Source: Escherichia coli
GTDB taxonomy: Bacteria; Pseudomonadota; Gammaproteobacteria; Enterobacterales; Enterobacteriaceae
NCBI RefSeq assembly: GCF_017348835.2
Contig: NZ_CP072312.1
Length of the DNA: 64,000 bases
Reading direction: 5' to 3' (one strand)
Shown: piece after piece, positions 34,001 to 40,000 of the stretch
Layout of the letters: each line of letters begins with the position of its first letter
Numbering within the stretch: position 1 is the first letter of the stretch
Program-made: the position numbers

Positions 34001-37000
34001 TTATTTCCGATGGAAGCATAATAAGCTTTTTCTGCTTCTGCCGGAGGAATATGGCCCAGCCTTTCCAGCAATCGTCGATTGTTATACCAGTCCACCCACG
34101 TGAGTGTGGCCAGTTCCACTTCTGCACGGTTTTTCCAGCTCTTACGGTGTATTACCTCCGCTTTGTAAAGACCATTGATGCTCTCCGCCATCGCGTTGTC
34201 ATACGAGTAACCTGTACTCCCTGTTGATGCCAGCAGTTTTGCTTCTTTTAGTCGCTCCGTATAGGCCAGTGATACATACTGAGAACCTTTATCACTGTGA
34301 TGGACTGTGCCGGACGGCCGACGGGCCCACAACGCCTGCTCCAGTGCATCCTGAACCGCCCCGGAAATCCTGGAGACTAAACTCCCTGAGAAAGAGGTAA
34401 ACAGGATGACTAAAAATACTCGTTTTTCCCCCGAAGTCCGTCAGCGGGCGATTCGTATGGTTCTGGAAAGTCAGGATGAATATGACTCACAGTGGGCGGC
34501 AATTTGTTCCATTGCCCCAAAGATTGGCTGTACGCCGGAGACTCTGCGTGTCTGGGTTCGCCAGCATGAGCGGGATACCGGGAGTGGTGATGGTGGACTC
34601 ACCACCGCTGAACGTCAGCGTCTGAAAGAGCTGGAACGTGAAAATCGTGAACTGCGCCGCAGTAACGATATCCTTCGCCAGGCTTCCGCTTATTTTGCGA
34701 AGGCGGAGTTCGACCGCCTCTGGAAAAAATAATGCCACTGCTGGATAAGCTGCGTGAGCAGTACGGGGTCGGACCGGTATGCAGCGAACTGCATATTGCC
34801 CCGTCAACGTATTACCATTGTCAGCAACAGCGACATCATCCGGATAAACGCAGTGCCCGTGCGCAGCACGATGACTGGCTGAAGAAAGAGATACAGCGCG
34901 TATACGATGAAAATCACCAGGTATACGGTGTGCGTAAAGTCTGGCGTCAGTTGTTACGGGAAGGTATCAGAGTGGCCAGATGCACTGTGGCACGTCTCAT
35001 GGCAGTTATGGGACTTGCCGGTGTTCTCCGGGGTAAAAAGGTCCGCACTACCGTCAGCCGGAAAGCCGTTGCCGCATGCGACCGCGTAAACCGTCAGTTC
35101 GTGGCAGAACGTCCAGACCAGTTGTGGGTGGCTGATTTTACCTGGGTAAGCACATGGCAGGGCTTCGTCTATGTGGCGTTCATCATTGATGTGTTCGCCG
35201 GATACATCGTGGGATGGCAGGTCTCATCATCCATGGAAACAACATTCGTGCTGGATGCACTGGAGCAGGCGTTGTGGGCCCGTCGGCCGTCCGGCACAAT
35301 CCATCACAGTGATAAAGGTTCTCAGTATGTATCGCTGGCCTACACGCAGCGGCTTAAGGAAGCCGGATTACTGGCATCAACAGGGAGTACTGGCGACTCG
35401 TATGACAACGCGATGGCGGAGAGCATCAATGGTCTTTACAAAGCGGAGGTAATACACCGTAAGAGCTGGAAAAACCGGACAGAAGTGGAACTGGCCACAC
35501 TAACGTGGGTGGACTGGTATAACAATCGACGATTGCTGGAAAGGCTGGGCCATATTCCTCCGGCAGAAGCAGAAAAAGCTTATTATGCTTCCATCGGAAA
35601 TAATGATCTGGCAGCCTGAGTTCACAGATAAAACACTCTCCAGGAAACCCGGGGCGGTTCATCCAGCACGAATGTCGTTTCCATGGACGATGAGACCCGC
35701 CACCCCACGATGTATCCGGCAAACACATCAATGATGAACGCCACATAGACGAAGCCCCGCCATGTGCTTACCCAGGTAAAATCAGCCACCCACAACTGGT
35801 CTGGACGTTCTGCCACGAACTGACGGTTTACGCGGTCGCATGCGGCAACGGCTTTCCGGCTGACGGTAGTGCGGACCTTTTTACCCCGGAGAACACCGGC
35901 AAGTCCCATAACTGCCATGAGGCGCGCCACTGTACATCTGGCCACTCTGATACCTTCCCGTAACAACTGACGCCAGACTTTACGCACACCGTATACCTGG
36001 TGATTTTCATCGTATACGCGCTGTATCTCTTTCTTCAGCCAGTCATCGTGCTGCGCACGGGCACTGCGTTTATCCGGATGATGTCGCTGTTGCTGACAAT
36101 GGTAATACGTTGACGGGGCAATATGCAGTTCGCTGCATACCGGTCCGCCCCCGTACTGCTCACGCAGCTTATCCAGCAGTGGCATTATTTTTTCCAGAGG
36201 CGGTCGAACTCCGCCTTCGCAAAATAAGCGGAAGCCTGGCGAAGGATATCGTTACTGCGGCGCAGTTCACGATTTTCACGTTCCAGCTCTTTCAGACGCT
36301 GACGTTCAGCGGTGGTGAGTCCACCATCACCACTCCCGGTATCCCGCTCATGCTGGCGAACCCAGACACGCAGAGTCTCCGGCGTACAGCCAATCTTTGG
36401 GGCAATGGAACAAATTGCCGCCCACTGTGAGTCATATTCATCCTGACTTTCCAGAACCATACGAATCGCCCGCTGACGGACTTCGGGGGAAAAACGAGTA
36501 TTTTTAGTCATCCTGTTTACCTCTTTCTCAGGGAGTTTAGTCTCCAGGATTTCCGGGGCGGTTCACAATGCTGAAAAACAAACATGCATAATAAGTCACA
36601 ATTATGAATTGTGATTTCTTCTATAAAAAAGAGACCACTGCAATATGTGATCTATTGTATTATTTCATAATTGTTAAAGCCACTTCACAGTATGCTCACA
36701 TTGTACGGATATATTCGTAATGTTTTTTATATCGAATGAACGACAGAAGTTGTGGAGATTTTATGAAAGTAATTAGCATGAAATTTATTTTTATTTTAAC
36801 GATTATTGCTCTTGCTGCTGTTTTTTTCTGGTCTGAAGATAAAGGTCCGGCATGCTATCAGGTCAGCGATGAACAGGCCAGAACGTTTGTAAAAAATGAT
36901 TACCTGCAAAGAATGAAACGCTGGGACAACGATGTTCAACTTCTTGGTACAGAAATCCCGAAAATTACATGGGAAAAGATTGAGAGAAGTTTAACAGATG

Positions 37001-40000
37001 TTGAAGATGAAAAAACACTTCTTGTCCCATTTAAAGCTGAAGGCCCGGAGGGTAAGAGAATGTATTATGGCATATACAATTGTGAGGAGGGATATGTTGA
37101 ATATGCGAATGACTAATACACTGTTATAAAGGCTGCATAAAAAGGCCGGAATCCCGGCCCTTATATTATCGCTTACCACTTTCTTTAATGTGAATTTCAC
37201 CAGGAAGCAGTATCTGGTACTCTTTACCAGAAAACATCGCCCCGAGCCTTGTGAGCGACTCTCCGATGATGCCACGGTGAGTGCTGGCGTTAAAATCGTA
37301 TTTATCATCATATGAACGAACAACGCCTGTGCTGGATATAATTGCTCATTCTGTTGTTGATAGATAATAACTTTATCAAGTAATTTAATACTATCCATTC
37401 CATTAACTCTTTTTAAAGATAAAAACTGTATCATAGTTTGTTTAAATAACATAGATAATCTTTACAAGATCATTTCAGAAATCTATATCATATAAAAAGC
37501 CAATATGTTATTTATATACTAACGTTCACGTAAACTTTCATTAATAGTTTCCTTTAATGGACTAAGAAGATAGCTGATAACACTACGCACCCCGGTTTTT
37601 ATTTCTGCCATAACAGTCATTCCAGCTGTAACAGGGATTTTTTTTCTTTCTCCCTGTATATCATTCCGATCAACAGATATAATCACGTTAAATACAAGCC
37701 CTGTATCCGGAACAGAAACAGAATCTGCAGTTATATTTTTTACTTTCCCTGTAAGGTAACCATGACGTGTATATGGATATGCATCTACTTTAATAACGAC
37801 CTCCTGTCCAGGTTGTATAAAACCGATATCCTTGTTAAGTACAGATGCTGTTACTTCGAGAATATCATTATCAGGGACAATAATCATCAGCGTTTCTGCT
37901 GTTGTGACAACACCACCTTCTGTATGTATATTTAACTCCTGAACAGTACCACTCACAGGAGCTTTAATAAAAGATGATGCTTTTCTCTGCCTGTTTTTTT
38001 CAAGCTCATGCTCCAGCAACACAATGTTATCTGTTGATTTTCTGTGCTTCTCGATAATTTCACTTCTGAAGATATTCGTCTCCAGTGCCAGTTCTTCCCG
38101 CACAAGTTCTATTTCTTTTTCAAGTTGAGAAACCTGTGCAAGCCAGACTGCATGTTCATTTTTTGCCTGAATATAGCTATTTTCCTGCTCCATAACTGAA
38201 TGTTGAGAAACAGCTTTTTTATTCAACAAATACTTAAAATCATTGAGTTTTCTTCCTTCCTGTGATACCTGATGCTCATACAGGCTAACACGAGCAAGCG
38301 CTGCATCCCGTTCAACTATTTTTTTATTTAATGTGAGCTGCTTTTGATTTTTTCTGTTCTGCCATGTCATGAATTGCTCTTTTATTAATGAGCTAACCCT
38401 CTGAAAATGTTCACCTCCCGCATTATCTTCTCCGCCAGGAAAATCTGTTATCCTTATTTCAGGAAGCTCATTCCGTTGTATTGATTCAGAAAGAATTGCG
38501 TAGCGATATTGTTCTGTTTTTTCATACAACAAAGATGCTTCTGATTTTAAAATATCAGATTCAACACCAGGCACCGTCAATTCAACTAATGGATCATTTT
38601 TTTTTACAAAAGAGCCATCTTTTACCATTATTTTTTCTACAATCGCATTCTCTATCGGTTTTATTTCTTTGCTTCTTCCACTATGAGTAAACTTACCATT
38701 TGCTACTGAAACCACTTCAACTTTCCCAAGAACAGATAAGAGAAGAGATATAATTACAAATAATAAAATACTCCATACAACAAAATGAGAACGTCTGGAT
38801 ACTGGTGTTTCAATGAGTTCAAGGTGAGCAGGAAGAAATGCATACTCATCTTTTTCTCTCACAGGAGCATCAAGTGTGTGACGAATTTTCCAGACATCAG
38901 AAAAAACCGTCTTATAACGGCAAACCAAATCCCATAAACCTTTCATGTAAAAGCGCATACGTTATGCCTGCAACTGATATAAATATGCATATAAACTGTC
39001 TTTTTTGGAGATAAGCTCTTTATGTGTGCCATCTTCAGAAATAAAGCCATTATCCATAACAATTATTCTGTTTGCATTTTTTACAGTTGACAACCTGTGT
39101 GCAATAATAATTACGGTTCTGTTCTTACATATTCTTGACATATTTTTCATTATTATATTTTCCGACTCATAATCAAGAGCACTGGTTGCTTCATCAAAAA
39201 TAAGAATTCGAGGATTTGTAACAAGAGCCCGGGCTATTGCGATCCGTTGGCGCTGCCCTCCTGAAAGACCAACGCCCTGTTCTCCAACAATAGTATTGTA
39301 CCCTTCTTTTAGTTCTGTAATAAAATCATGGGCACCTGCAAGTCTGGCGGCCTCAATAGCCTGTTCCATAGATACAGCCGGAGAAGCTAATGTAATATTA
39401 TCGATAATACTACGATTTAATAGTATATTTTCCTGCAATACAACACCAATCTGGCGTCGTAACCATTCTGGATCTGCAAGTGATAAATCATGCCCATCAA
39501 TTAAAATCTGTCCGGTCTCTGGTATATAAAAGCGCTGAAGCAGTTTTGTTAATGTACTTTTTCCTGAACCAGAACGGCCAACTATACCGATAACATCCCC
39601 CTTTGATATGTATAAATTAATATTATTCAAAATAACATTACCGTCAGAAGAATACCGAAATCTGACATTTTTAAATTCGATATCCCCCTGAATTTCCGGC
39701 AGTATATTTCTGCCTGACTTTTTCTCTACCGGTGTATTTAATACATCACCAAGGCGCTCAACAGAAATACCAACCTGCTGAAAATCCTGCCAAAGATGAG
39801 CCAGTCTGATAACAGGAGCAATGACCTGACCTGCAAGCATATTAAACGCGATTAACTGCCCGATGCTTATCTCTCCCGATATGACAAGATGTGCTCCCAT
39901 CCATAGACTAATTACCATTACACTTTTCTGTATCAGCTGTATCCCCTGCTGCCCTGTCATTGCAACCAGATTTACCCTGAAACTGGAAGCAACATACCCG

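Follow-up and report, generated by a model that had tools for sequence, protein, structure and literature searches.

An orphan colicin M immunity gene from a ColBM-type locus beside the enterohaemolysin operon of Escherichia coli

Results and discussion

The 64-kb stretch of E. coli DNA analysed here (the window), part of a non-O157 EHEC virulence plasmid, carries, next to its enterohaemolysin (ehx) operon, a short open reading frame which its sequence matches identify as cmi, the gene for the colicin M immunity protein Cmi. Judged by its sequence and that of its neighbours, it is an orphan immunity gene from a ColBM-type colicin locus that has become fused to the ehx region. We have good confidence in the explanation as a whole, namely that cmi derives from such a locus, that the toxin gene cma was cut to 53 codons by joining downstream of ehxD, and that the immunity gene left behind is likely defensive. 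What is known of the gene and of the structure and function of its product belongs in textbooks, and public records annotate the locus as cmi. As a discovery it carries minor weight, and its practical relevance is modest.

Identity of the open reading frame

The ORF list of the window contains a frame, from ATG to stop, of 126 aa at 36736..37116 (+). In a search of the PDB its product matched chain A of the Cmi structure 4AEQ at 95 of 98 residues (97% identity, E = 1.3e-64), a comparison which covers the crystallised periplasmic domain of Cmi, as well as a second Cmi structure, 2XGL (E = 7.6e-61). A profile search, which the earlier note on this DNA had proposed, gave 34.2 bits against the Pfam YebF-like family PF13995, above the gathering threshold of 27 and spanning profile positions 4–88 of 89. 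RefSeq gives the name cmi to an identical protein, WP_000864811.1, which pO103/pO45-type plasmids encode at the corresponding position, and does so at the ehx locus of plasmids from 2011C-4315, 2009C_3612 and 2000-3039. The exact protein is found under this name on at least 1000 public contigs. With 97% identity to two solved structures, a score above the Pfam threshold and RefSeq cmi at this very locus, the description of the frame in the earlier note as uncharacterised and without an assignable family does not hold.

The frame is short and lies in AT-rich DNA, with pseudogenes and IS elements on its flanks, features which might suggest a chance ORF in intergenic DNA and no gene at all. This reading, whose probability we put at practically nil, is refuted by a PDB match far beyond chance, by the curated name and by the occurrence of the exact sequence on so many contigs; the ORF is real, as was supposed.

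Cmi shares a fold family and a conserved cysteine pair with E. coli YebF (PF13995; PDB 2LQV; PMC8469651), and the window product does match the YebF structure 2LQV, though weakly (E = 0.0057). Together with the position of the gene adjoining ehxD, this might point to a secreted or carrier protein of the YebF type, or some other membrane protein, tied to haemolysin secretion and not to colicin immunity. However, the product is 97% identical to Cmi itself, and it scores 40.9 bits against the NCBIfam model for YebF_not_Cmi (NF041240), well below the equivalog cut-off of 110, and so is not YebF proper. YebF is an exported protein with a cleavable signal peptide, whereas the window protein belongs to the membrane-anchored Cmi branch. 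The adjacency to ehxD is also secondary, since pO157-type plasmids carry a MarR-family gene there and 451 of 622 ehxD-positive genomes are without the fusion of cmi to ehxD. We regard a haemolysin role of this kind as effectively refuted and its probability as very small.

The true start of cmi is probably not ATG 36736 but ATG 36763, because the latter has a Shine–Dalgarno sequence, GGAG (36754–36757), 5 nt ahead of it, is the start used by RefSeq and agrees with the published Cmi length of 117 aa (PMC8469651). ATG 36736 is without a Shine–Dalgarno sequence. Thus, the 126-aa open frame of the earlier note is present, but its first 9 codons are probably untranslated, and the gene itself, as supported by the PDB, Pfam and RefSeq matches, occupies 36763..37116 (+), giving 117 aa plus stop. 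Counted from this start, the most hydrophobic 19-residue Kyte–Doolittle window, VISMKFIFILTIIALAAVF, covers residues 3–21 with a mean of 2.57, and the protein is hydrophilic from residue 24 on. The strongly hydrophobic N-terminus described earlier is therefore borne out, as is the charged C-terminal part, the other 94 residues including 20 D+E and 13 K+R. The published topology of Cmi consists of an N-terminal TM anchor (residues 1–23) followed by a periplasmic domain (PMC8469651).

In the same numbering, C31 and C107, the essential disulfide pair of Cmi (PMC8469651), are both in place. The E81-D82-E83 cluster, E113 and Y114, whose mutation abolishes immunity (PMC8469651), are all retained. 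The Cmi (ImM) of pColBM (AAA23594.1, ColBM-Cl139; PDB 2XGL, 4AEQ) is the same gene, likewise of 117 aa and with 97% identity over the crystallised domain, and it is alike in its TM anchor, Cys31/Cys107 pair, acidic patch and E113/Y114. The window protein differs from this crystallised reference by three substitutions, D96E, M104I and H106N.

Remains of a colicin locus around cmi

The neighbouring cma stump, which the earlier note missed, explains the presence of cmi at this locus through an origin from a colicin locus. Downstream of cmi, the order is hairpin terminator, then, on the minus strand, cma stump, regulator stump and ehxD, and it is from these four elements that we infer both the orphan status of cmi and its ColBM origin. 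The GC-rich hairpin, GGCCGG-AATC-CCGGCC (37144..37159; terminator scan and RNA fold), lies between AAAAA and a T-rich run and is conserved with ColBM plasmids in the alignment. It is a bidirectional terminator common to cmi and the 3' end of cma, which converge on it with opposite polarity.

The cma remnant (37166..37327, −), identified by tblastn, translation and RefSeq, comprises the last 53 codons and the stop, and is 100% identical to ColM residues 219–271 (tblastn). It keeps the catalytic motif DKYDFNASTHR. Having no start codon and neither import nor receptor domains, it is a pseudogene, and the RefSeq entry reads ‘lipid II-degrading bacteriocin, incomplete, missing N-terminus’. With residues 219–271 the only part of ColM encoded, the locus is not a complete colicin M production locus, which has cma and cmi and as a rule cba and cbi too; tblastn with ColM, Cbi and ColB found no full-length cma (271 aa), cba, cbi or 5' part of cma in the 64-kb window. 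Insertion of the ehx operon into cma, with the rest of the colicin locus to be expected beyond the operon, was considered and rejected for the 64-kb window, since the same searches gave ColM 219–271 only.

The regulator stump (37328..37452, −) is a 5' remnant of 42 codons from a small gene, recognised by alignment to the pO157-like pTA111 and entered as a pseudogene in RefSeq, and it is joined to the cma stump in a different reading frame. In pO157-type plasmids, the regulator gene is a 64-aa ORF after ehxD, and is followed by a 94-aa ORF assigned to the MarR family by a Pfam match. A 153-aa ORF on the minus strand (36991..37452), without a family match among the Pfam and NCBIfam profiles, was rejected as a gene; it is a chimeric frame that runs from the regulator stump through cma, read out of frame, into the antisense strand of cmi. 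The enterohaemolysin operon has ehxD as its last gene (37519..38958, −; ORF list, RefSeq annotation), and cmi (+) is indeed convergent with it.

On its left, the cmi module is bounded by IS629. A complete second IS629 (34352–35661, +) splits the outer copy (33943–36565), whose terminal inverted repeat ends at 36565, and inverted and direct repeat analysis places the left ∼909 nt of the outer copy at 35657..36565 (−). The sequence becomes homologous to ColBM plasmids and to other ehx plasmids at 36566, directly past the IS629 end, with the last 26 nt of an integrase gene, including its TAA stop (36566..36591, +; alignment to pL3, 2009C_3612 and ColBM plasmids). In ColBM plasmids, as in ehx plasmids free of the IS, cmi comes after a site-specific integrase gene, whose CDS ends here; the remainder has been removed from the window by IS629. 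ColBM plasmids share the order integrase–cmi–cma. Past the integrase stop, at 36596..36614, a reading of the sequence gives a perfect 7-bp inverted repeat, TCACAAT-N5-ATTGTGA, and then TTTCTTCT. This is a weak terminator-like element, and the repeat is conserved in all aligned plasmids.

The native upstream region of cmi (36615..36762, +), which contains the Shine–Dalgarno sequence, has ∼99% identity to ColBM plasmids, as do, in the alignment, the whole 197 nt 5' of the gene. A consensus scan and a looser scan found no convincing sigma-70 consensus promoter upstream of cmi, for which a promoter of its own has been reported (PMC8469651). The location between an IS629 end and the ehx operon, in AT-rich DNA, is as described in the earlier note, with 34% G+C for 36566–37518 against 48% for the whole window. 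The locus is like that of pColBM in its upstream integrase, convergent cma and common terminator, and differs, besides the three substitutions in Cmi, in the reduction of cma to 53 codons and in the IS629 197 nt upstream.

Distribution and decay of the cmi–ehxD fusion

The fusion of cmi, cma stump and ehxD was found in about 171 (169–171) of the 622 ehxD-positive complete E. coli genomes (∼27%), which answers positively the question of conservation beside ehx operons. The genomes bearing it span several serogroups, including O103:H2, O45:H2, O121, O145 and O26, and an identical cmi is present in two ‘Big 7’ strains, CDC 00-3039 (O45:H2) and CDC 03-3014 (O26:H11). There are two junction variants, type A (∼56 genomes) and type B (∼115).

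The cma stump is decaying: small junction deletions differ between the two types and the stop codon is lost in type B. The 117-codon cmi frame is intact in all five of the fully aligned ehxD-linked copies (two of type A and three of type B). In pL3, a further type B record, ATA replaces the start ATG of cmi; this was rejected as a mark of type B decay, being specific to pL3, since ATG is retained in three further plasmids of type B. One other genome shows only bases 1–338 of cmi. Substitutions in cmi are too few for a dN/dS test, and the intact ORF could be a simple reflection of recent origin.

Both junction types would go back to one fusion event, after which each suffered a deletion of its own. 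The hypothetical undeleted junction, in which cma sequence ending in GCCATTGTAA runs directly into AAGAAG of the regulator gene, was in no plasmid record when searched with a synthetic 98-nt query; the best full-length matches to this query, at 89.8%, were of type B. The hypothetical undeleted sequence across the cma–regulator junction contains GAACGAACAACGCCATTGTAAAAGAAGATGTTCC. The locus also records, as a clean scar that can be dated, the recombination of a ColBM with an EHEC plasmid.

As regards the allele differences, E96 is the common natural Cmi allele. M104I occurs in both junction types and H106N in that of the window, and among the sequences compared, in which the toxin-linked alleles number four (three natural plasmids and the ColBM-Cl139 reference), I104 and N106 were found only in ehx-linked orphan copies. 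Both residues adjoin the essential Cys107, and the two changes could tune protection.

In large-scale surveys, immunity genes of the ColM type have been described as orphans beside toxin genes with conserved truncations, a pattern read as selected defence, and 46 ‘peptidoglycan-inhibiting’ orphans were counted in the E. coli plasmid survey (PMC12546727). Like these orphans, the window locus has an immunity gene without a functional toxin and a heavy truncation common to many distinct plasmids. In the present case, the truncation junction is fused to the enterohaemolysin region of EHEC virulence plasmids and exists in two decayed variants.

Possible protection against colicin M

The most likely function of this cmi, to go by its sequence, is protection from the colicin M of competing E. 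coli. Following what is known of the protein, the 117-aa Cmi would enter the inner membrane via its N-terminal helix (residues 1–23), and its YebF-like domain would be exposed in the periplasm, its structure held by DsbA-dependent Cys31–Cys107 disulfide bonding (PMC8469651). Colicin M, a lipid II-cleaving toxin, gains entry through FhuA and TonB, and the periplasmic domain would neutralise the imported toxin ahead of the arrest of peptidoglycan synthesis, probably by a direct, titratable interaction via the acidic E81-D82-E83 patch and E113/Y114 (PMC8469651). As there is no functional cma on the plasmid, which is thus unable to make the toxin, the role of cmi is likely to be defensive only. 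The likely target would be colicin M from ColBM-carrying E. coli in the gut, and the beneficiary non-O157 EHEC.

That cmi is expressed and usefully protective in these strains we consider slightly better than an even chance. The stronger proposal, that there is active maintenance of cmi on the virulence plasmids of non-O157 EHEC and that it measurably lowers the colicin M sensitivity of these strains, is possible but falls somewhat short of even. If true, it would mean protection against ColM from ColBM-carrying cattle commensals and against ColM-based food antimicrobials.

It is also conceivable, although we think it unlikely, that cmi is an inert relic, intact since the recombination which destroyed cma was recent, and hitch-hiking on successful ehx plasmids without useful protection, whether through poor expression or through weakening by M104I/H106N. 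The lack of a detectable consensus promoter upstream of cmi is consistent with this, as are the non-synonymous changes beside Cys107 in orphan alleles, absent from the four toxin-linked alleles, the ATA start of pL3 and the one genome showing only part of cmi, and a divergence too low for purifying selection to be demonstrated. However, every residue known as essential is kept, and the native upstream region, Shine–Dalgarno sequence and terminator are untouched. Moreover, cmi is intact in the aligned copies of both independently decaying junction types, which together occur in ∼171 genomes and in several serogroups.

A retained protective function also has to be weighed against the sensitivity of STEC to the toxin. 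Among colicins, ColM has been described as having the broadest activity on the ‘Big 7’ STEC reference strains (PMC6465592, PMC8469651), and since the panel on which it is broadly active includes two cmi-positive strains, 2000-3039 and 2003-3014, Cmi protection may be weak or easily overwhelmed in STEC, as a relic would also predict. Nevertheless, protection by Cmi depends on dose (PMC8469651), so that killing by concentrated ColM in spot assays is compatible with protection at natural doses and does not exclude it. ColM is one of the components of colicin cocktails put forward against STEC (PMC6465592, PMC8469651), and a ready-made ColM immunity gene is present on the virulence plasmid of about one quarter of the enterohaemolysin-positive complete genomes and in two standard ‘Big 7’ strains.

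Identification of the ORF as Cmi

The 126-aa ORF at 36736..37116 (+), taken from the ORF list of the window, sits in the 953-bp gap that separates an IS629 end from the haemolysin operon, and is convergent with ehxD (37519..38958, −). The G+C content of this gap is 34%, compared with a window mean of 48%. The N-terminus is strongly hydrophobic, the top 19-residue Kyte–Doolittle window being VISMKFIFILTIIALAAVF (mean 2.57), and the other 94 residues are charged (D+E = 20, K+R = 13). Sequence analysis thus bears out the physical description in the earlier note, namely a hydrophobic N-terminus with a charged remainder, convergent with ehxD in AT-rich DNA beside an IS629 end.

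The same note held the ORF to be uncharacterised, with no assignable family, and here the database evidence contradicts it. The protein passes the gathering threshold of the Pfam YebF-like family (34.2 bits versus 27) and fails the NCBIfam ‘YebF_not_Cmi’ equivalog (40.9 bits versus 110). A search of solved structures gave 95/98 identical residues (E = 1.3e-64) with 4AEQ, a structure of the colicin M immunity protein Cmi, and the same three differences were found against a second Cmi structure, 2XGL. A megablast with the locus as query retrieved plasmid records that annotate the ORF as ‘cmi: colicin M immunity protein’. The identical RefSeq protein, WP_000864811.1, occupies the same position in plasmids of 2011C-4315, 2009C_3612 and 2000-3039, and by exact sequence the 117-aa protein, named Cmi, is present on at least 1000 public contigs. 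It is therefore nearly certain from these matches that the ORF is Cmi. The gene is already known: RefSeq annotates it at this position, two crystal structures of its product are available, and orphan immunity genes, of which it is one, are a documented class.

The start codon is better placed at 36763 than at 36736. A GGAG (36754–36757) lies 5 nt before ATG 36763, and no Shine–Dalgarno sequence was found before ATG 36736. Starting at 36763 gives 117 aa, the published Cmi length, and places the cysteines at the published positions 31 and 107 (PMC8469651). In ColBM (colicin B/M) plasmids a T7 run opens the frame farther upstream, giving a 141-aa form, and in the window a T6 run (∼36726–36731) closes this extension; this fits the view that the upstream codons are dispensable. 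The T6/T7 run likewise decides between the 141-aa and 126-aa forms that coexist with the 117-aa RefSeq form in public records. Older GenBank records contain the exact 126-aa translation on 238 contigs, where it is wrongly called ‘colicin transporter’.

Origin of the locus and junction types

Homology to ColBM plasmids begins at 36566. This point falls in the gene of a site-specific integrase, within its final 26 nt; the gene precedes cmi in ColBM plasmids and IS-free ehx plasmids alike. Directly after the cmi stop, a terminator scan and RNA folding located a GC-rich hairpin (37144–37159) between an A-run and a T-rich run. It is followed by a stump of the colicin M (ColM) gene cma at 37166–37327 (−), encoding the last 53 ColM residues and the stop (100% identity to ColM 219–271); the stump includes the catalytic motif DKYDFNASTHR and lacks a start codon and ColM residues 1–218. 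Plasmid alignment traced the next segment, 37328–37452 (−), to a small gene located after ehxD in pO157-type plasmids, of which it comprises the first 42 codons; in those plasmids the site is filled by a 64-aa ORF and a 94-aa MarR-family ORF. Both stumps are RefSeq pseudogenes. A 153-aa ORF spanning them (36991..37452, −) had no family match in Pfam/NCBIfam profile searches and was rejected as a gene, being merely the stump chimera read through.

ColBM plasmids share this gene order (integrase, cmi, convergent cma), which indicates that the locus is a fragment of a ColBM colicin region, joined by recombination to the DNA downstream of ehxD. This event removed cma codons 1–218 and most of the MarR-family gene. 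The DNA replaced to the left of 37328 corresponds to 3619–4127 of the pO157-like plasmid pTA111 (L003), in which the post-ehxD gene looks like a split MarR-family regulator, the 94-aa ORF having a MarR HTH.

Two variants of the cma/regulator junction occur among ehx plasmids (window 37315–37345; ∼1000–1040 in the ehx-plasmid record L007). Type A, ...GAACGAACAACGCC/TGTGCTGG..., is found in the window and in O103:H2, O45:H2 and O121 plasmids, and type B, ...ATGAAC/ATTGTAAAAGAAGATGTTCC/TGTGCTGG..., in O145, O26 and some O103:H2 plasmids. Each type retains bases missing from the other, which implies a common ancestor: a single crossover at a TTGTAA microhomology could yield both, with a 20-nt deletion leading to type A and an independent 10-nt deletion to type B. 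We infer this step, since the undeleted junction was searched for in the plasmid collection and not found.

Judged by its sequence, the cma stump is visibly decaying, and type B has lost the cma stop codon. Full alignment of five ehxD-linked copies, two of type A and three of type B, showed an intact 117-codon cmi frame in every one. In plasmid pL3 of EC20017429 (type B) the cmi start codon reads ATA instead of ATG (L004 4206–4208), although the record still annotates the same 354-nt CDS; because three other type B plasmids retain ATG, the change is attributed to a mutation confined to this isolate or to a sequencing error. In one other genome only cmi bases 1–338 were seen.

Prevalence

Among 5426 complete E. 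coli genomes, 622 carry ehxD and 169–171 carry the cmi–cma stump–ehxD fusion (∼56 type A and ∼115 type B, estimated from identity bands), while full cma with cmi is present in 434. The fusion is absent from pO157 of O157:H7. VirulenceFinder-type screens have reported the colicin B gene cba in 97% of O26:H11 STEC isolates and in many O103 EHEC, with cma rare (PMC4612136, PMC5794082). A tblastn search of the 64-kb window found neither cba, its immunity gene cbi nor 5′ cma; the cba of those screens must therefore lie in other parts of the genomes concerned.

Functional considerations

Cmi is anchored in the membrane and inhibits ColM, a lipid II-degrading toxin, in the periplasm, probably through direct, titratable binding (PMC8469651). 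Residues 1–23 form the inner-membrane anchor, the periplasmic domain requires DsbA-dependent Cys31–Cys107 disulfide bonding, and mutation of C31, C107, E113, Y114 or the E81-D82-E83 cluster abolishes immunity (PMC8469651). All of these residues are retained in the window.

Relative to the crystallised reference, the window's Cmi carries D96E, M104I and H106N. These were compared with Cmi of three natural plasmids bearing full-length cma and of the ColBM-Cl139 reference. E96 appears to be the usual natural residue, because it is present in all three natural plasmids. M104 and H106 occur in all four toxin-linked sequences; among the ehx-linked orphans, both types have I104, and only type A, the window's own, has N106. 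Residues 104 and 106 flank Y105, beside the essential Cys107.

As the plasmid is unable to make the toxin, the sole plausible role for cmi here would be to protect its carrier against ColM made by other strains. A recent plasmid survey counted 46 orphan immunity genes in the peptidoglycan-inhibiting class, and interpreted conserved truncations that recur in distinct plasmids as a sign that defence is selected for (PMC12546727). The intact ORF, essential residues, native upstream region, Shine–Dalgarno sequence and terminator argue indirectly for function, as does the persistence of cmi while neighbouring genes decay. Against function count a possible effect of the two substitutions beside Cys107 (M104I, H106N) and the lack of a recognisable consensus promoter upstream of cmi in two scans. 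In addition, of the colicins, ColM is said to have the broadest activity against the ‘Big 7’ panel of STEC reference strains (PMC6465592, PMC8469651), and this cmi is present on the ehx plasmids of two of those strains, 2000-3039 (O45:H2) and 2003-3014 (O26:H11); this is not decisive, because Cmi protection is dose-dependent (PMC8469651). On balance, we lean slightly towards real-world protection by the orphan cmi. The point of practical interest is whether it blunts ColM, including ColM-based food antimicrobials, in non-O157 EHEC carriers.

Upstream region

A perfect inverted repeat, TCACAAT-N5-ATTGTGA (36596–36614), lies just past the integrase stop and ∼150 nt before cmi. All plasmids compared keep the repeat, which may serve as a weak terminator or bind a protein. 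To the left of 36566 the sequence is all IS629: repeat analysis resolved an outer copy (33943–36565, −) interrupted by a complete second copy (34352–35661, +), the nesting producing inverted repeats of 915 nt and 414 nt. At this site the arrangement seems simpler in the related plasmids of strains 2011C-4315 and 2000-3039. Upstream of the IS629 block (∼30000–33900) are a glycosyltransferase family 4 gene, cptA (phosphoethanolamine transferase) and lpxM (lipid A myristoyltransferase), named from the annotation of related plasmids.
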